From: Nitrososphaerales archaeon | GTDB lineage: Archaea > Thermoproteota > Nitrososphaeria > Nitrososphaerales > Gagatemarchaeaceae | NCBI GenBank assembly: GCA_035622335.1 | Contig: DASPVO010000004.1 | Location: 1,657 to 65,656, forward strand | Direction of reading: 5' to 3' | Length of the DNA stretch: 64,000 bases | Shown here: one piece after another, positions 12,046 to 37,733 of the stretch | Position numbering within the stretch: position 1 is the stretch's first letter | Layout: the number at the start of each line of letters is the position of its first letter | Program-made: the position numbers and the translations under genes | Notes under the pieces: model-generated | The model's database searches: none | Told to the model about the DNA's origin: nothing | The model's input: the letters and a program-made list of their open reading frames with translations, nothing else

Positions 12046-12463
12046 GGCGAAACGAATTCTCGCCAGCGGGAGGCCGAACTTAAATGTTCTGCTAAAATTG
12101 GGAGATTTGATTCAGACCAGATGAAGTTCCGCTCAAATTGATTGGGCGACCGAAGACCGACTCTTTCACTGTGTTTGAAACCCAGATTCAGAGTAGGTCG
12201 AAGTGCTCTGAGAGCCTTAGCGAGAAGGATGGCGACGTCGAGTGTTTTGAAAGTTGCCAGCATCAGGGCTTCGCAAGGGCTCTCGCACCTCACTAACACC
12301 CTGACGACACACGGTTTGACTTCTGGGGTCGGAAAGAGTCCAGGTCGGACCCGTGCGCTATGGCCGGCTGAGTTTGTCGACTCCGCCAAGGCGATTTAAC
12401 TGTTTTGGGACGGTATCGCTATCCGTCGCCAGCCTAATATCGAACGGCAAATGGACCGCAGCT

Positions 12464-14540: not shown

Positions 14541-14678
14541 GGGGGCGTAGCCCAGCCAGGCAGGGCGACAGGCTCCAGTGGTCAAACAAAACGTTTGATG
14601 ACACAGCAGCGTGGATGATTAGGCATTGGAGCTGCGTAAGAAACCTGTAGACCGCCGGTTCAAATCCGGCCGTCCCCA
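14541..14678 (+). tRNA. tRNA-Trp (CCA) with a ~64-nt intron in the anticodon loop (about 14579-14642)
   Basis: Acceptor GGGGGCG/CGTCCCC. D-arm GCCC-AGCCAGGCA-GGGC. Anticodon stem ACAGG (14568-72)/CCTGT (14644-48) with loop start CTCCAG (anticodon 14575-77). T-arm GCCGG-TTCAAAT-CCGGC. Discriminator A. No encoded CCA. Confidence 0.85.
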
Positions 14679-15777: not shown

Positions 15778-16407
15778 TTGGCAAGGCTCTCCAAGAAAGC
15801 ACTCGACGGTCCGACCCTCCAAGTTGCCCACCGCCTCATCGGGAGCAAGCTCGTCAGGGTGCTCAGAGGCGAGAGACTCGCCGGTCGCATCATCGAGGTC
15901 GAAGCCTACGGTGCCTTCTCGGACCCAGCCAGCCACGCTTACATCGGAGAGACCGCGAAGAACAGGGTGATGTACCTCTCTGCGGGCCGAGCGTATGTCT
16001 ACTTCACCTACGGCTTCCACTATTGTCTGAACGTAGTCACCGAGCCTCCGGGGGTGCCTGCAGCCGTCCTGATCCGGGGACTAGAGCCGCTCGAGGGACT
16101 CAACACCATGAAAAAACTGAGGAAGAGTAACAGTACTGGTGTTCTGTGCAGCGGCCCCGGAAGAGTCACTCAGGCGCTGGCTATCGATGCGGGCTTTAAC
16201 GGGTTGGACATGATCAACTCAGAGACTCTCTTCTTGGAGACAGGGCCCGATAGTCCGGTGGTGAGAACAAAACGGGTTGGAGTGTCGGCTGGGGAGGAGC
16301 GCCTTTGGAGGTTTGTTGAGAATCAACGGGGGAGATCAGAAGATGGCAGAGCGGAAAGAGCCTATATCACCCGAAGAAAACCGGTCACACATGGGGTCGT
16401 CGGCTAG
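15778..16407 (+). CDS. DNA-3-methyladenine glycosylase (MPG/AAG family)
   Basis: LIGSKLVRVLRGERLAGRIIEVEAYGAFSDPASHAYIGETAKNRVMYLSAGRAYVYFTYGFHYCLNVV is the MPG core. The last 15 nt of the ORF overlap the tRNA-Pro 5' end, so the true C-terminus may be shorter. Confidence 0.85.
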   Translation: MARLSKKALDGPTLQVAHRLIGSKLVRVLRGERLAGRIIEVEAYGAFSDPASHAYIGETAKNRVMYLSAGRAYVYFTYGFHYCLNVVTEPPGVPAAVLIRGLEPLEGLNTMKKLRKSNSTGVLCSGPGRVTQALAIDAGFNGLDMINSETLFLETGPDSPVVRTKRVGVSAGEERLWRFVENQRGRSEDGRAERAYITRRKPVTHGVVG

Positions 16408-16537
16408 ATCGCAGTAGGGTGTTAAGCCCGAGAACGAGGCTAGTCTGGTCTAGGCTTCAAGCAACGTTTGGAAGAAGCCTTGGGATTGTGGACAAGAACG
16501 CTTGAGACCGCCGGTTCAAATCCGGCCGACCCCACCA
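16393..16537 (+). tRNA. tRNA-Pro (UGG) interrupted by three insertions (D-loop ~36 nt; 29/30 16 nt; 37/38 14 nt); CCA encoded
   Basis: Acceptor GGGGTCG (16393-99)/CGACCCC (16527-33). T-arm GCCGG-TTCAAAT-CCGGC. Anticodon loop CTTGGG|C with UGG at 16481-83. Strict bulge-helix-bulge motifs surround 16461-16476 and 16485-16498. See findings. Confidence 0.7.
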
Positions 16538-19445: not shown

Positions 19446-21743
19446 ATGACGTCGATAGTTGAGAAACCACGAGACACTACGGATGGAGGAAGTCAGCGCA
19501 GCACCGAGATAAAGCTGCCAGCGGAAACCCTCGCTGCGTTCGGAGGAGACGAACTCCGCGCGAGGGTGTTCTATGAAAAATATGCGCTCCGGGACCCGAC
19601 GGGCAAGCAGGTCGAGAACAGGCCCGAAGACATGTGGAGAAGGGTCGCGACAGAGCTATCCTCGGTCGAGTCAGAGGATGACAAGAGGCGCGAATGGGCG
19701 ACGAAGTTCTTCTGGCTGCTCGAGGACTACCGCTTCGTCCCTGGGGGACGGATACTCTTCGGGGCCGGACAGCCCAGGAAGTCGACGCTGCTGAACTGCT
19801 ACTTCTTCAAGATAAGGGAAGACTCCATCGAATCGATCTTCGACTTTTGCAAGGAGGCCGCCAGGACATACACCTTCGGCGGTGGCGTCGGGACAGACAT
19901 CTCGAACCTCAGACCCAAGGGTTCCCCGGTCAACAACGCGGCGATCTACAGTTCAGGCTCGGTCTCCTTCATGGAGCTGCTCTCCACCACTACGGGGACG
20001 ATAGGGCAGGCTGGCAGGAGGGGGGCGCTGATGATAACGATCAGGGTGGACCACCCTGACATCTTCGACTTCATCAACGTCAAGAGGGACCTGAAGAAGG
20101 TGAACTACGCGAACATCTCAGTCAAGATAACGGACCAGTTCATGAAGGCGGTGGAGAGCGACGGTGAGTTCCTGCTGCACTTCAAGAACGAAAAGGTGGA
20201 GGTCAACAGGACGGTGAAGGCGAGGGACGTGTGGAAGCAGCTCATCAGAGGGGCTTGGGAGTCAGACGAGCCCGGCGTCCTCTTCTGGGACACGATCAAG
20301 AGGGACTCCACCACGGAGTACAACGGGATGGAGGTCGAAGGGGTGAACCCCTGCAGCGAGCAGACGCTCGAGAGCTACGGCTGCTGCTGTCTGGGCTCGG
20401 TGAACCTGAGCTCGTTCGTCAAGGAGCCCTTCTCCGAGAAAGCAAGCATAGACTGGGACTCCCTGGCGAGGGCGTGCCAGTTCGGTGTCCGCTTCCTCGA
20501 CAACGTGCTCGACTACAACGCGGAGAGGCACCCGCTCCCCCAGCAGAAGAAAGCGTCGCTCTGGAGCAGGAGGATAGGCGTCGGGATCACGGGCCTGGGA
20601 GACATGCTGATCAAGCTCGGCCTGAAGTATGACGACGCGTCCACCATAGAGTTCGTCGACCATCTGTTCGAGAGGATCAAGAACCAGATCTACGAATACT
20701 CCACTGAGCTCGCTAAGGAGAAGGGGAGCTTCCCTGCCTTCGACGCGGACAAGCACCTGTCGCAGCCCTTCATCCAGAGGCTCGAGCCCAAGGTGAGGGA
20801 GAAGATCAGGATCCAGGGGATAAGGAACGCGGCGATCTCGACGATACCTCCGGTCGGCTCTGGTTCAATCCTTGCGGGTTGCTCGAGCGGTGTCGAGCCC
20901 GTCTTCGCGCTCTTCTACACGAGGAGGAGCAAGTCGCTCAGCGAGGGCGAGTTCAAGGTCTTCCACCCGCTGGTGAAGGAGTACATGGCGCTCAACAAGG
21001 TCTCGGACGAGCATCAGCTTCCAAGCTACTTCGTGACGGCTCACCAGATCAGACCCGAGATGAGGGTGAAGATGCAGGCTACGATCCAGAAGCACATCGA
21101 CACCGCAATCTCGAGCACGGTCAACCTCGCGGAGGAGACGACTCCTGAAGAAGTGGATAAGATCTACATGCTCGCGTGGAGGATGGGTTGCAAGGGCATG
21201 ACGGTCTACCGAGAGGGGAGCAGGGAGGGCATCTTGGAGACCGAGAAGGTCGCAAAGAAACCCCAGACCCCTTCTGCCGACTTCGAGAGGCCACGAATGA
21301 TGGAGGGCAGGACGATGAAGCTCAGGCTTCCCCAGGGCGGCATCTACGTCACGACCAACATGATAAACGGGGAGCTGAAGGAGGTCTTCGTGACCCTTGG
21401 AAAGTCCGGTGGTGACGAGAAGGCCGACGCTGAGGCGCTAGGCAGGCTGATCAGCCTCTACCTCCAGCACGGGGGGGACATCAAGAACGTCATCTCCACG
21501 CTGAAGGGCATCAAGGGGAAGTACGCTTCCTGGGACGAAGGGACGCAGCTCCTTTCGATACCCGATGCGGTCGCCAAGGCGCTAGAGATGGAACTCAACG
21601 CCGGCAGCCTCTCGGTCGTGTCAGTCCAGGGACAGAAGGGAGAGCCGCAGGCCGCGACGTGCCCGGAGTGCCACGAAAGTGCCCTGATCTTCGAGAACGG
21701 CTGCTACCGCTGCACGAACTGCGGTTACTCCAGATGTGAGTGA
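19446..21743 (+). CDS. nrdJ: class II (adenosylcobalamin-dependent) ribonucleotide reductase
   Basis: RVFYEKYALRD..., FVPGGRILFGAG, LLNCYFF, GGGVGTDISNLRPKGSPV, EGVNPCSEQTLESYGCCCLGS, and a C-terminal CPEC...CTNCGY zinc ribbon. Confidence 0.92.
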   Translation: MTSIVEKPRDTTDGGSQRSTEIKLPAETLAAFGGDELRARVFYEKYALRDPTGKQVENRPEDMWRRVATELSSVESEDDKRREWATKFFWLLEDYRFVPGGRILFGAGQPRKSTLLNCYFFKIREDSIESIFDFCKEAARTYTFGGGVGTDISNLRPKGSPVNNAAIYSSGSVSFMELLSTTTGTIGQAGRRGALMITIRVDHPDIFDFINVKRDLKKVNYANISVKITDQFMKAVESDGEFLLHFKNEKVEVNRTVKARDVWKQLIRGAWESDEPGVLFWDTIKRDSTTEYNGMEVEGVNPCSEQTLESYGCCCLGSVNLSSFVKEPFSEKASIDWDSLARACQFGVRFLDNVLDYNAERHPLPQQKKASLWSRRIGVGITGLGDMLIKLGLKYDDASTIEFVDHLFERIKNQIYEYSTELAKEKGSFPAFDADKHLSQPFIQRLEPKVREKIRIQGIRNAAISTIPPVGSGSILAGCSSGVEPVFALFYTRRSKSLSEGEFKVFHPLVKEYMALNKVSDEHQLPSYFVTAHQIRPEMRVKMQATIQKHIDTAISSTVNLAEETTPEEVDKIYMLAWRMGCKGMTVYREGSREGILETEKVAKKPQTPSADFERPRMMEGRTMKLRLPQGGIYVTTNMINGELKEVFVTLGKSGGDEKADAEALGRLISLYLQHGGDIKNVISTLKGIKGKYASWDEGTQLLSIPDAVAKALEMELNAGSLSVVSVQGQKGEPQAATCPECHESALIFENGCYRCTNCGYSRCE

Positions 21744-22789: not shown

Positions 22790-24193
22790 CTACTGGCCCT
22801 TCACGTAGTACTTCTGGATGAACTCTTCCTTTATGTTGGTGAGCTCAGACTCTGGAAGGTCAGAAAGGACCTCCCACGCTATCCTCAGGCTGTCTTCGAA
22901 CGTCCTGTTCTCGTCGTACCCCTGGTTGAGGTACTTGCTCTCGAAGTCGTCCCCGAACTGAAGATACTTCAGGTCGGACGCCGTGAGGCCCGACTTTCCC
23001 ACGATCTCTGCGAGCGCCCTCAACTCTATCGACCTCGAGTAGGCGTTGTAGAGCTGGTTCCCGACCTGGGAATAGTCCGGCCGAGCGCCGCCTCTCTTGA
23101 TCACCGTCCCCAGAGCGGGTCCCATGAGCCTGCTCAGACTGGAAAGGACGTAGACTGGAGGATAGATCCCCTTCCTGAAAAGGTCTCTACCGAGGAATAT
23201 CTGCCCTTCGGTGATGTAGCCCGTGAGGTCAGGGATCGGGTGGGTGACGTCGTCGCTTGGCATGGTCAGAATGGGCATCTGAGTGATGCTGCCCTTCCTG
23301 CCCTTTATCTTCCCGGCTCTCTCGTAGAGAGTCGACAGGTCGGTGTAGAGATACCCCGGGAATCCCTTCCTCCCCGGCACCTCCTCTCTCGCTGCGGAGA
23401 TCTCGCGCAGGGCCTCTGCGTAGTTGGTTATGTCGGTGATGATCACGAGGACGTGCATTCCTAGTTCGAACGCGAGGTACTCGGCGGCTGTCAGGGCTAC
23501 CCTGGGTGTGATTATCCGCTCTATCGCGGGGTCGTCTGCCAGGTTGAGGTAGAGGATGCTTCTTCTGATGGCTCCCGACTGCTCGAGTGTCTTTTGAAAG
23601 AAGGAGGCTTCGCTGTGGGAGACTCCGACCGCCGCAAAGACCACCGCGAACTCCTCTCCCTGACCCGCGACGGTCGCCTGCCTCGCAATCTGGGCTGCGA
23701 GGTTGTTGTGGGGCATTCCCGCGCCCGAGAAGATCGGGAGCTTCTGCCCCCTCACGAGAGTCAGCATCCCATCGATCACCGAGACGCCCGTCTGAATCAG
23801 GTCCGTGGGGTACTCCCTCCTCTCGGGGTTAATCGGAGCGCCGTTCACGTCGAGGAACGTCTTGGCCACGGGCTCCGGGAGCCCATCAAGCGGCTTGCCC
23901 AGGCCGTCGAAGACCCTGCCGAGAAGCTGGTCCGATACGGGGATTTCCATCGTCCGTCCGAGAAACTTCGCTCGTGTACCGCTGACCGAGAGTCCAGAGG
24001 TCCCTTCAAAGACTTGGACCACGGCCTTCCCGAAGCCCGTCTCGAGGACCCTGGCCAGCCTGCGCGTGCCGCTCCCGTCCTCGATCTCCACGAGCTCATC
24101 GAACGCCGCCTTCTCGACCCCGTCGACCACAAGCAGAGGACCCTTGATCTCCGCGACCTTACTGTATTCCAGACCCGAGGAGGACTTAGCCAG
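22790..24193 (-). CDS. atpB: A-type ATP synthase subunit B (5' end extended beyond the first canonical start codon)
   Basis: The ORF-track version starts at GTG 24130. The in-frame upstream codons encode ...[16 protein letters not shown], the conserved first strand of AtpB. Only CTG (24193, 24172) or ATC are available as starts after the in-frame TGA at 24238-36. Confidence 0.88.
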
Positions 24194-25976
24194 CGACGGC
24201 CACCGCCTGAACCGTCCCGAAAGAAGCGAACTCGCTCAACATCTCCTTCACGACCGCGTCCAGCTTGTCCATCTCGTCATTCTTGATGGCGAACTTCGCC
24301 CTCAGCATCTTGGAGGTGACCTGCATCCCCCTGACCTTGGCGAGCGGCACCCCGTTCCTAAGGCATTTCAGAGCCTCCTGATGAAACTGGACGAACATCT
24401 TCATCATCACGAACTGCTTCTGCGGGCTGCAGTAGGCGTCCGTGTCGTCGTACGCGTTCTGCTGGAGGAAGCCTATCTGGATCATCCTAGCGACGTCCAG
24501 GATCAGCTTCTCCTCGTCGGGGAGGGCTTCAGGCCCGAGGAGCCTGACTATCTCCTTAAGCGCGTCCTCTCTCTGGAGGATTCCGTAGGCTTCGCTCCTG
24601 ACCGAAGCCCACTCCTTGTCTACCTTCTCCGCCCACCACTTGGCGACCGAGTCGACGTAACCTGAGTATGAGGTCATCCAGTTGATCGAAGGATAGTGGC
24701 GTGAGTAGGCGAGCCTTGCATCTAGCGCCCAGAAGTTCTTCACGAACCTGATTGTCTGCGCCGTTACCGGTTCGGTGAAATCGCCCCCGGCGGGCGACAC
24801 CGCCCCGATGAGGGTGATGGAACCTGTCCGTTCAGGGGAGCCGAGCACTGTCATCCTGCCCGCTCTCTCGTAGAACTCGGCGAGCCTTGAAGCCAGGTAG
24901 GAGGGGTAGCCCTCCTCTGCCGGCATCTCTTCGAGCCTTCCGCTTATCTCTCGCAAAGCCTCGGCCCATCTGCTGGTCGAGTCCGCAACCAGAACGGTGT
25001 CGTAACCCATGTCCCTGTAGTACTCTGCCATGGTCGCGCCCGTGTAGATGCTGGCCTCCCTTGCGGCGACCGGCATGTTGCTGACGTTCGCCACGAGGAT
25101 CGTCCTCTCCATGAGGGGCCGGCCCGATGCAGGGTCGATCAGCTCTGGGAACTCGACGAGGACTTCGGTCATCTCGTTCCCACGTTCTCCGCAGCCGATG
25201 TGGAAGACGACCTTGGAGTCGGCCCACTTCGCTATAGAGTGAAGGGTGACAGTCTTGCCGGTGCCGAACGCGCCGGGTATGGCGCCCGTACCGCCCTTTG
25301 CCATCGGAAATACAGAGTCGAGCACTCGCTGGCCGGTCATGAGCGGTATCGCGGGGTCCAGTCTCGCTCTGATGGGGCGGGGCGTCCTCACCGGCCAGCG
25401 GTGGTAGAGTTTGAGCTCGTGCTTGTCTCCGGCCTTGTCCTCGGCCACACAGACCGTCTGGTCGAGCGTGAACTTCCCTCCCTTGACAACGTCCTTCGCC
25501 TTCGACCTTTGGAGTGTTGGCGGGGCGAGTATTCTGTGCTCGATCAGAGGCGTCTCCTGGACCGTCCCGAGCACTGTTCCTCCTTCGACCTCGTCGCCGG
25601 GTTTGACCCGCGGCGTGAACTCCCACTTCTTGTCGAACGGAATCGAGTCGGCCGTCACTCCTCTGGTGATGAATGCGCCTGCCTTCTTCGCGATTACGTC
25701 CAGAGGCCTCTGAAGTCCGTCGTAGATCGTCCCGATCATGCCCGGACCCAAGGTCGTCGAGAGGGGTTGACCCGTCCCCGTGACAGGCTCGCCTGGCCTG
25801 AGGCCGCTGGTCGATTCGTACACCTGGACGAATGCTATGTCGCCCGTGAGCTTGATGACCTCCCCGACGAGCTTCTCTTCGCCGACCTGTACCACCTCGT
25901 ACATCTTGGCCGCTGCCATGCCCGATGCCTTGACGGCCGGTCCGGAGATCCACTCAATCTTCCCCTTGACGACCAA
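24186..25976 (-). CDS. atpA: A-type ATP synthase catalytic subunit A
   Basis: 596 aa. [10 protein letters not shown]-terminus, Walker A GAFGTGKT, non-homologous region insert. TTG start. Confidence 0.95.
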
Positions 25977-30146: not shown

Positions 30147-30662
30147 ATAGAGGTCCTCCGTGTAGGACAGCGATACGTGAGAGACGACAGGACGCTCACG
30201 CACCTCTGCCTCGTCTCGAGGGCGCTAGGCGCTGAAAGAATCTACCTCCAAGAAGTCGAGAAGGACGTTCCAGGCACGGTGCAGAAGGTGAACGAGGACT
30301 GGGGAGGAGAGTTTCAAGTGGTGACGAGCGCCAGCTGGAAGAAGGTAATCGCTGACGCGAAGTCAGCGGGGAGGAAGGTTGTGCACCTCACAATGTACGG
30401 AGTGCCACTGCAGGACGTCGTCGAAGAGCTACAGCGCCAGGAGAAGCTGCTCTTCGTCGTGGGAGGGCCGAAGGTCCCTGGCTTCGTCTATCACGAGTCA
30501 GACTACAACGTCGCGGTGACCTCGCAGCCTCACTCCGAAATCGCGGCTCTCGCAATAACGCTCCATGACGTCCAGTCCGGAGAAGAACTTAAGAAGAACT
30601 TCGGCAAAAGTAGACTGCGCATTCTTCCCACAGCCAGAGGGAAGCGCGTCGTGAGAAATTGA
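30147..30662 (+). CDS. trm56: tRNA (cytidine56-2'-O)-methyltransferase aTrm56 (SPOUT); start codon non-canonical
   Basis: The ORF-track version starts at GTG 30177. The in-frame upstream codons encode IEVLRVGQRY, matching the conserved aTrm56 N-terminus (M-I-V-V-L-R-L-G-H-R in Pyrococcus, from memory). Only ATA 30147 or CTG 30135 are available. Confidence 0.8.
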   Translation: MEVLRVGQRYVRDDRTLTHLCLVSRALGAERIYLQEVEKDVPGTVQKVNEDWGGEFQVVTSASWKKVIADAKSAGRKVVHLTMYGVPLQDVVEELQRQEKLLFVVGGPKVPGFVYHESDYNVAVTSQPHSEIAALAITLHDVQSGEELKKNFGKSRLRILPTARGKRVVRN

Positions 30663-37440: not shown

Positions 37441-37733
37441 GACGCGAGCCGGTGGACGGGCCACGGGGGTCTCCTGGGGAAGTTCCTCCCTCACTGCAGG
37501 ACGCACGGCGCCAAGAGGCGCAGCCGGAGACGGCTGGCTCCAGAACAGAAACGAGACCCGACCCATCATGTGCGATGATGGGGCGACCCAGAGATCGGTG
37601 GAGTCGGGATGAAACGGCTGACCCGTGCGGAGCAAGGCCGAACGTGGTCGATGAAACGCCTGCGAGAGACCAGGGTGGGCCGCTCAGCTGAATCCCGTCT
37701 AGAACAGAAGGAGGACTACGGCCGGGACGCGTC
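37441..37733 (+). ncRNA. rnpB: RNase P RNA (type A-like)
   Basis: CR-I/P4 5' strand GGGGAAGTTCCTCCC (37476-90) pairs with the CR-V/P4 3' strand ACAGAAGGAGGACTA (37704-18), leaving one bulged U. GGGATGAAACGG (37606-17) resembles the conserved GGGUGAAACGG element. P1 is GACGCG (37441-46)/CGCGTC (37728-33). An AT-rich TTAATT lies ~25 nt upstream. Confidence 0.8.

Follow-up and report, generated by a model that had tools for sequence, protein, structure and literature searches.

Three introns with strict and relaxed bulge-helix-bulge motifs in a tRNA-Pro(UGG) gene of a Nitrososphaerales archaeon

Archaeal tRNA genes that carry several introns bounded by bulge-helix-bulge (BHB) motifs, or by relaxed forms of them, are well described, and position 29/30 is among the listed non-canonical sites (PMC4090602). 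The closest described counterpart of the gene reported here is the tRNA-Pro(UGG) of Pyrobaculum islandicum, whose three introns lie at 25/26, 37/38, and 56/57 (described by Sugahara et al. 2007/2008, cited in PMC4090602). The 217 archaeal genomes of a 2021 tRNAscan-SE census contained 16 three-intron genes, every one of them in the Thermoproteales, while the 11 genomes of Thaumarchaeota, with 498 tRNA genes, contributed 39 two-intron genes and none with three (PMC8450103 Table S7). Non-canonical introns are numerous in Thaumarchaeota, and tRNAscan-SE 2.0 includes a dedicated BHB covariance model (PMC8450103). In the literature searched, we saw no three-intron tRNA reported from Nitrososphaerota. 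Here, we describe a tRNA-Pro(UGG) gene interrupted by three introns on contig DASPVO010000004.1 of a Nitrososphaerales metagenome-assembled genome (MAG; GCA_035622335.1). The window is the whole stretch of 64,000 nt that was analyzed, and all coordinates are window positions unless another locus is named.

The gene occupies 16393-16537 on the forward strand. It very probably functions as a gene for tRNA-Pro(UGG) in a Nitrososphaerales archaeon, expressed as a precursor of about 145 nt from which EndA would splice introns at 15/16, 29/30, and 37/38. Its parts, checked against the sequence, are as follows.

16393-16407, + strand: exon 1, tRNA positions 1-15 (acceptor 5' strand, U8, C9, D-stem G10-U13, A14, G15)
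16408-16443, + strand: intron 1, 36 nt, in the D-loop at position 15/16, relaxed HBh' motif
16444-16460, + strand: exon 2, positions 16-29 (remaining D-loop with G18 G19, A21, D-stem G22-U25, U26, C27 A28 A29)
16461-16476, + strand: intron 2, 16 nt, in the anticodon stem at position 29/30, strict hBHBh' motif
16477-16484, + strand: exon 3, positions 30-37 (G30 C31, C32 U33, anticodon U34 G35 G36, G37)
16485-16498, + strand: intron 3, 14 nt, at the canonical position 37/38, strict BHB motif
16499-16534, + strand: exon 4, positions 38-73 (C38, 3' strand of the anticodon stem, variable loop AGACC, T arm, acceptor 3' strand, A73)
16535-16537, + strand: encoded CCA, directly after the discriminator A73 (16534)

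The likeness to P. islandicum extends to the isoacceptor, to the combination of one canonical with two non-canonical BHB or relaxed introns, and to a presumed broad-specificity (alpha-beta)2 endonuclease; the host differs, as do the non-canonical sites (15/16 and 29/30 here, 25/26 and 56/57 in P. islandicum). With the one- and two-intron tRNA genes of Thaumarchaeota the locus shares its phylum and its short BHB introns, several per gene being common there, but three introns are present in the window's tRNA-Pro(UGG) and in related tRNA-Pro(CGG) genes. A eukaryotic nuclear tRNA gene with three BHB-dependent introns, one of them in the D-arm, is a further likeness, although another enzyme complex is involved and there is no homology of introns or positions. 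The feature is thus of a known kind, and it modestly extends the range of three-intron tRNA genes from hyperthermophilic Thermoproteales to soil-type Nitrososphaerales.

GGGGTCG (16393-99) and CGACCCC (16527-33) form a perfectly paired acceptor stem, and the T arm reads GCCGG-TTCAAAT-CCGGC (16510-26, with strands 16510-14 and 16522-26). Joining 16393-16407, 16444-16460, 16477-16484, and 16499-16537 gives 79 nt, i.e., a tRNA of 76 nt plus CCA, with a D stem of G10.U25, G11-C24, C12-G23, and U13.G22, a 5-bp anticodon stem CAAGC/GCUUG, and the loop CUUGGGC. The conserved nucleotides U8, A14, G18 G19, A21, G37, and A73 are all present. ARAGORN, which an earlier note on this DNA had proposed as a check, found nothing on the raw genomic DNA, with or without its intron option, whereas it called the spliced product, the one given in that note, tRNA-Pro(tgg) with a standard cloverleaf. 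The Rfam tRNA model matched 16393-16534 with 30.3 bits, a margin of 1.3 bits over its threshold of 29. A 145-nt stretch of a single strand holds all four exons, contiguous and in their proper order, which sets the gene apart from split or permuted tRNA genes.

Since three deletions leave freedom in their choice, independent evidence on the junctions was sought in relatives, whose loci are given here as L numbers. The protein of the upstream glycosylase gene was scanned against species-representative genomes and found relatives of about 47% identity, L002 and L003 among them; all relatives were at 54% identity or below, several were bacterial, and the scan was mainly useful for these two. In L003 (‘archaeon isolate 13_2’) the same glycosylase gene is followed by an uninterrupted tRNA-Pro(UGG) of 76 nt that scores 56.5 bits with Rfam. 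It is colinear with the predicted spliced product and identical to it at 73 of 76 positions, the differences being a compensatory change of A28-U42 to G28-C42 and one base of the variable loop. The syntenic gene of L002, a Nitrososphaerota MAG, has a D-loop intron whose ends are homologous to those in the window and a longer 37/38 intron, and it lacks the one at 29/30.

A metagenome collection was then scanned with the 25-nt 3' end of the gene, which was found identical in at least 119 stretches. Among these, 32 distinct sequences share the exons of the window, in the form GGGGTCGTCGGCTAG-TCTGGTCNAGGCTTCAA-GCCTYGGG-CGCTTGAGANC... Introns in this family are confined to the three sites of the window and number none, one, two, or three per gene in nearly all combinations. 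Exon 1 is the same in every relative except L002, which has one additional G. The distribution, by anticodon and occupied site, is as follows.

UGG, no intron: L003
UGG, 29/30 only: L028, L056, L059, L060, L101
UGG, 37/38 only: L071
UGG, D-loop and 29/30: L015, L016, L049, L051, L058, L068, L095, L104
UGG, D-loop and 37/38: L002, L041, L054
UGG, all three introns: the window
CGG, no intron: L031, L045
CGG, 29/30 only: L023, L040, L050, L076, L115
CGG, 29/30 and 37/38: L081
CGG, all three introns: L064, L072, L103

For the tRNA-Pro(UGG) gene alone, at least six of the eight possible states of occupancy were seen. The closest relative retrieved, L134, whose adjacent ribonucleotide reductase is 87% identical to that of the window, has the D-loop and 29/30 introns and lacks the one at 37/38; its spliced product is called tRNA-Pro(tgg). 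The proposal of the earlier note, a tRNA-Pro(UGG) gene with three interruptions, is therefore borne out by the ARAGORN call on the spliced product, by the syntenic intronless gene of L003, and by the matching intron sites of dozens of relatives. Synteny around the tRNA gene is kept in relatives, and no mobile element was seen at the locus. In L136, with a ribonucleotide reductase 83% identical to that of the window, neither the glycosylase nor the tRNA-Pro gene is present at the corresponding position, and L135 and L137 (also 83%) have the same gene layout. Variation in intron number between related environmental genomes has a parallel in the tRNA-Thr(GGU) of Caldiarchaeum subterraneum (PMC3293823); there it is linked to a 1.9-kb insertion carrying a recombinase together with a duplicated tRNA fragment, unlike the simple presence or absence at three fixed sites with synteny kept that is seen here.

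Between the relatives and the window, the exons are 96-99% identical (73-75 of 76 positions) and the introns 34-69%. Conserved exons with diverging introns are what a functional gene with fast-evolving introns would show, not a pseudogene. A decaying pseudogene that has accumulated insertions, with a working tRNA-Pro(UGG) elsewhere, would fit an Rfam score barely over the threshold, the silence of ARAGORN on raw DNA, and a view limited to 64 kb. It is nonetheless very unlikely, given that the exons are intact while the insertions have diverged, that a conserved splice motif bounds every insertion, that the same architecture occurs in independent metagenomes together with a conserved promoter-like box, and that the syntenic gene is the sole tRNA-Pro seen at that locus in relatives. 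Still less credible are insertions created by mis-assembled reads, for which the origin of the window in a metagenome assembly might speak: the identical tRNA sequence is found in ENA contig ERZ27251333 k141_2163090, and many independent assemblies from JGI, ENA, and NCBI, long-read MAG contigs among them, contain homologous introns that have the same ends.

We searched for splice motifs with our own BHB scanner, which requires a 4-bp central helix and a 3-nt bulge on each strand and cuts after the second bulge nucleotide. All three junctions have this arrangement, two 3-nt bulges on opposite strands with a 4-bp helix between them. At 29/30, the central helix CTTC (16455-58)/GAAG (16471-74) lies between the bulges AA|G (16459-61) and AA|G (16475-77), with a 3-bp outer helix (16452-54/16478-80) and the 3-bp inner helix CAA/TTG (16462-64/16468-70). 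At 37/38, the central helix is CTTG (16479-82)/CAAG (16493-96) and the bulges are GG|A (16483-85) and AA|C (16497-99); the inner helix has 2 bp, and the outer helix has 4 bp (16475-78/16500-03) while intron 2 is present and becomes the full 5-bp anticodon stem once intron 2 is gone. With 2 bp or more in both outer and inner helices, these two motifs are of the strict hBHBh' type, in keeping with the textbook motifs reported earlier for both sites. The motif of the D-loop intron is not. There, G10-U13 (16402-05) pairs with the 3'-terminal GGCU of the intron (16438-41) as G.U, G-C, C-G, and U.G, between the bulges AG|A (16406-08) and AG|U (16442-44); the inner helix UCG/CGA has 3 bp (16409-11/16435-37), the outer helix 0 bp, and the intron contains an internal hairpin (16417-20/16426-29). 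This corresponds to HBh', which Marck and Grosjean described as a relaxed form (cited in PMC4090602); HBh' and hBH motifs are known relaxed substrates (PMC4090602).

BHB-like motifs arise by chance in the window at about 19 per kb in the strict and about 48 per kb in the relaxed form, a frequency at which we rejected the motif as stand-alone evidence. Other BHB-like matches nearby (e.g., 16406-16433, 16410-16455, and 16421-16454) were rejected because their removal does not restore the cloverleaf. At a junction fixed beforehand, the expectation falls to about 4e-4 for a strict and about 1e-3 for a relaxed motif. Since the junctions are set independently by colinearity with the intronless ortholog, three motifs at exactly those places are far beyond chance.

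The exact cut in the D-loop calls for separate consideration. The direct repeat GGCTAG (16402-07 and 16438-43) allows seven D-loop junctions that give the same product in the window gene. Among these, 15/16 (intron 16408-16443) is the sole register with BHB geometry, and cuts from 9/10 to 14/15 were rejected for want of a 4-bp helix between two 3-nt bulges; by the BHB rule, the cut is thus predicted at 15/16 rather than at 14/15. The acceptor pair, T arm, helices, bulges, GGCTAG repeat, and AGCC (16425-28) of the earlier note are all in place in the sequence, and its D-loop insertion of 36 nt bounded by GGCTAG stands. Its suggestion that the internal AGCC pairs with either GGCT copy does not: in L064, L072, L015, L002, and L134 the homologous introns lack AGCC, and the HBh' motif at 15/16 is preferred.

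The same architecture with a D-loop cut at 13/14 or 14/15, or one made via another structure such as AGCC/GGCT, is an unlikely alternative. In its favor, the seven junctions are indistinguishable from the window gene alone, and by alignment inspection a helix of G10-U13 with A-G-U16-C17, used by the minimum free energy (MFE) fold of the precursor, is nearly always possible in relatives. The additional G of L002 (GGCTGAG) is also an awkward fit to the 15/16 rule. Two 3-nt bulges separated by 4 bp are found only at 15/16, however, and the inner helix that positions the bulges covaries. In L072, the 3' end of the intron reads GGCTGG, so that a cut at 13/14 would put G in place of the invariant A14, limiting the junction to 14/15 or 15/16. 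In L068, alternative D-loop cuts give different products, GGCUAG|UCUGG versus GGCUAAUCUGG (G15 versus A15).

At L002 6622-6630 the sequence is GGCTGAGATCG, every other family member having GGCTAGATCG. The extra G gives either a 4-nt 5' bulge or an additional nucleotide between U13 and A14, and it could be a real variant, the stop TGA of the overlapping open reading frame (ORF) being kept, or a long-read indel. The GGCTAG repeat also occurs in L064 and L041 and elsewhere has decayed to GGTCAG, AGTCAA, GACCAG, or GGCAAG; it looks like a by-product of the self-complementarity of GGCU via wobble pairs, not a target-site duplication. A second repeat, GAAGAAG (16471-77), is found in the window only.

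Motif conservation was assessed in end-anchored alignments of homologous introns, 14 for the D-loop and 18 distinct sequences for 29/30. The inner helix of the D-loop intron is 94% paired, and four of its five pairs have changed on both sides, with 22 such cells among the 14 introns; examples are UCGUU/AACGA, UCGUG/CACGA, UCGAA/UUCGA, CAGAG/CUCUG, and CUG/CAG. None of 500 column shuffles matched the observed score, and pairing falls to 28-53% when the partner strand is slid by 1-3 columns. The central helix of this intron is 89% paired: GGCU, GGUC, and AGUC pair fully, and GACC, GGCA, and GGCG have one mismatch each. One-sided changes are all that is possible in this helix, the exon strand being fixed. 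The shared interior of the homologous introns is a GGG...CCC hairpin. At 29/30, the outer helix (A21 G22 G23 with C31 C32 U33) and the central helix (C24-C27 with GAAG, GGAG, or GAGG) are both paired in 100% of cells. At 37/38, the intron strand tracks the anticodon base U34 or C34, with CAAG, CGAG, or UGAG opposite UGG and CGAG opposite CGG; AAAG in L002 and L071 has one mismatch.

Several observations weigh against a functional three-intron gene spliced by EndA. The MFE fold of the precursor, at -57.5 kcal/mol, lacks the BHB motifs and instead contains the helices GGCUAG/CUAGUC and AGGCUUC/GAAGCCU, and the BHB conformers, at about -43 kcal/mol, are less stable. By alignment inspection, the GGCUAG/CUAGUC pairing is mostly available in most relatives too; AGGCUUC/GAAGCCU needs the GAAGAAG repeat of the window and is impossible in relatives. 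The central helix of the D-loop intron has two G.U pairs, lacks an outer helix, and carries one mismatch in 6 of 14 relatives. Pfam scans of 30 ORFs of the 64-kb window (105-765 aa) gave no tRNA_int_endo match that would point to EndA. A sub-threshold Rfam scan of the whole window found no further tRNA and hence no second tRNA-Pro in these 64 kb; an intact tRNA-Pro(UGG) may still lie elsewhere in the genome. Plain MFE folding did not recover the BHBs and so was not useful for defining splice sites; we infer that the BHB conformers are the biologically relevant ones.

Folds constrained to contain the intron-2 or the intron-3 motif are nearly isoenergetic (-43.4 and -43.1 kcal/mol). The nucleotides C31-U33 in the outer helix of intron 2 overlap C32-G35 in the central helix of intron 3, and since both motifs use the C31-U33 region, their complete forms are mutually exclusive. 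Removal of either intron leaves the other motif intact, so alternative conformers or sequential cutting are likely. In the processing that we propose, the gene's own TATA-type promoter, located near -30, would drive transcription of a precursor of about 145 nt with a very short leader, and EndA would cut inside the 3-nt bulges at each of the three introns. The 3' end of intron 1 would occupy the 5' strand of the D stem (G10-U13), and the intron-2 motif, together with C31-U33, the side of its 3' strand (A21-C27); with both strands sequestered, the D arm should form only after introns 1 and 2 have been removed. Introns 2 and 3 may be cut from alternative conformers or successively, and the exons would be joined by an RtcB-type ligase to give the 76-nt tRNA. 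The relaxed D-arm motif implies a broad-specificity heterotetrameric (alpha-beta)2 EndA as the probable enzyme type; the EndA of Thaumarchaeota has been assigned to the alpha2-beta2 type (PMC4090602). The known mechanism of archaeal tRNA splicing is unchanged by these findings.

The earlier note had read multiple and non-canonical introns as a clue to a Thermoproteales-type lineage, which the window does not support. Its adenosylcobalamin-dependent ribonucleotide reductase (19446-21743) is 100% identical to an NCBI protein labelled ‘MAG TPA ... [Nitrososphaerales archaeon]’, and the next closest proteins, of 80-87% identity, carry the labels Nitrososphaerales, Nitrososphaerota, Thaumarchaeota, or Candidatus Gagatemarchae... 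L002, L009, and L012 are likewise labelled Nitrososphaerota or Nitrososphaerales. The host is thus one of the Nitrososphaerales and not of the Thermoproteales. It is conceivable, with somewhat less than an even chance, that soil or peat Nitrososphaerales near Gagatemarchaeaceae that resemble non-ammonia-oxidizers have undergone a burst of tRNA introns of their own, independent of that in Thermoproteales.

The Rfam gathering threshold misses all two- and three-intron relatives that were scanned (L016, L054, L002, L064, L072, L058, L104, L068, L081, and L095), with scores of 55.8-56.5 bits for the intronless orthologs and about 38 bits for copies with the 29/30 intron only. If the present interpretation is correct, the tRNA sets of such MAGs are systematically under-called, most genes escaping standard finders, and MAGs of this lineage will seem to lack tRNA-Pro unless intron-aware tools are used. 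The occupancy series of tRNA-Pro(UGG) could then serve for dating intron gain and loss, and introns that sequester the D stem would allow a test of an imposed order of folding and splicing. The relatives also provide a comparative set for intron gain and loss and for minimal relaxed-BHB recognition in the D-arm.

Two features lie immediately upstream of the tRNA gene.

16362-16369, + strand: TATA-box-like CTATATCA at 24-31 nt before the tRNA 5' end, with a purine-rich stretch ahead of it as putative B recognition element
15778-16407, + strand: upstream ORF for a 3-methyladenine/purine DNA glycosylase (Pfam Pur_DNA_glyco), overlapping the tRNA gene by 15 nt

Relatives have an A/T-rich box at a matching distance (CATAACTA, GATAYAAC, or AATATAA), and the box at 16362-69 is a candidate for the tRNA-Pro gene's own archaeal promoter. 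The last four codons of the glycosylase (G-V-V-G) are tRNA positions 1-12, and its TAG stop is U13-A14-G15; with this overlap, the putative tRNA promoter falls inside the glycosylase coding region. The 15-nt overlap is found in seven loci, the window, L002 (stop TGA), L015, L028, L041, L060, and L079, with or without the D-loop intron, and the stop of other relatives comes 3-83 nt upstream. At the other end of the gene, CCA follows in about 40% of relatives and TCA, CCT, or CTA in the rest, so that a genomic CCA is not a fixed feature of this tRNA-Pro family. The window gene encodes it (16535-37), unlike the tRNA-Trp gene, as the earlier note had said.

That tRNA-Trp(CCA) gene (14541-14678, + strand) shares an identical 24 nt, at 14649-72, with the tRNA-Pro gene, another earlier observation that holds. 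Its intron of about 68 nt has two UGAUGA-like boxes, TTGATGAC and GGATGATT, which are conserved in L003 (211-340); the gene encodes no CCA. Euryarchaeal tRNA-Trp introns carry a box C/D guide RNA, of which the window's intron is reminiscent.

The scan with the shared 3' end also picked up a family of tRNA-Pro(GGG) genes in the metagenome collection. As many as three introns interrupt these genes, at a different set of sites (about 24/25, 37/38, and the variable loop). ARAGORN calls the spliced product of L113 tRNA-Pro(ggg), and two of its junctions have strict or relaxed BHBs. The loci are listed here.

tRNA-Pro(GGG) family: L108, L113, L091, L018, L038, L080, L062/L121
tRNA-Pro(GGG) family, two introns: L066, L086

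Other RNA genes and genes of RNA modification in the window are as follows.

12252-12371, - strand: 5S rRNA
30177-30662, + strand: aTrm56 (tRNA Cm56 methyltransferase)
37444-37730, + strand: archaeal RNase P RNA, 186 bits
38390-39220, - strand: QueC (archaeosine/queuosine precursor pathway)

In L135-L137 (9374-14316), the genes for the A and B subunits of an A-type ATPase contain inteins (LAGLIDADG); the ATPase genes of the window (22790-25976) are, by their size, intein-free.

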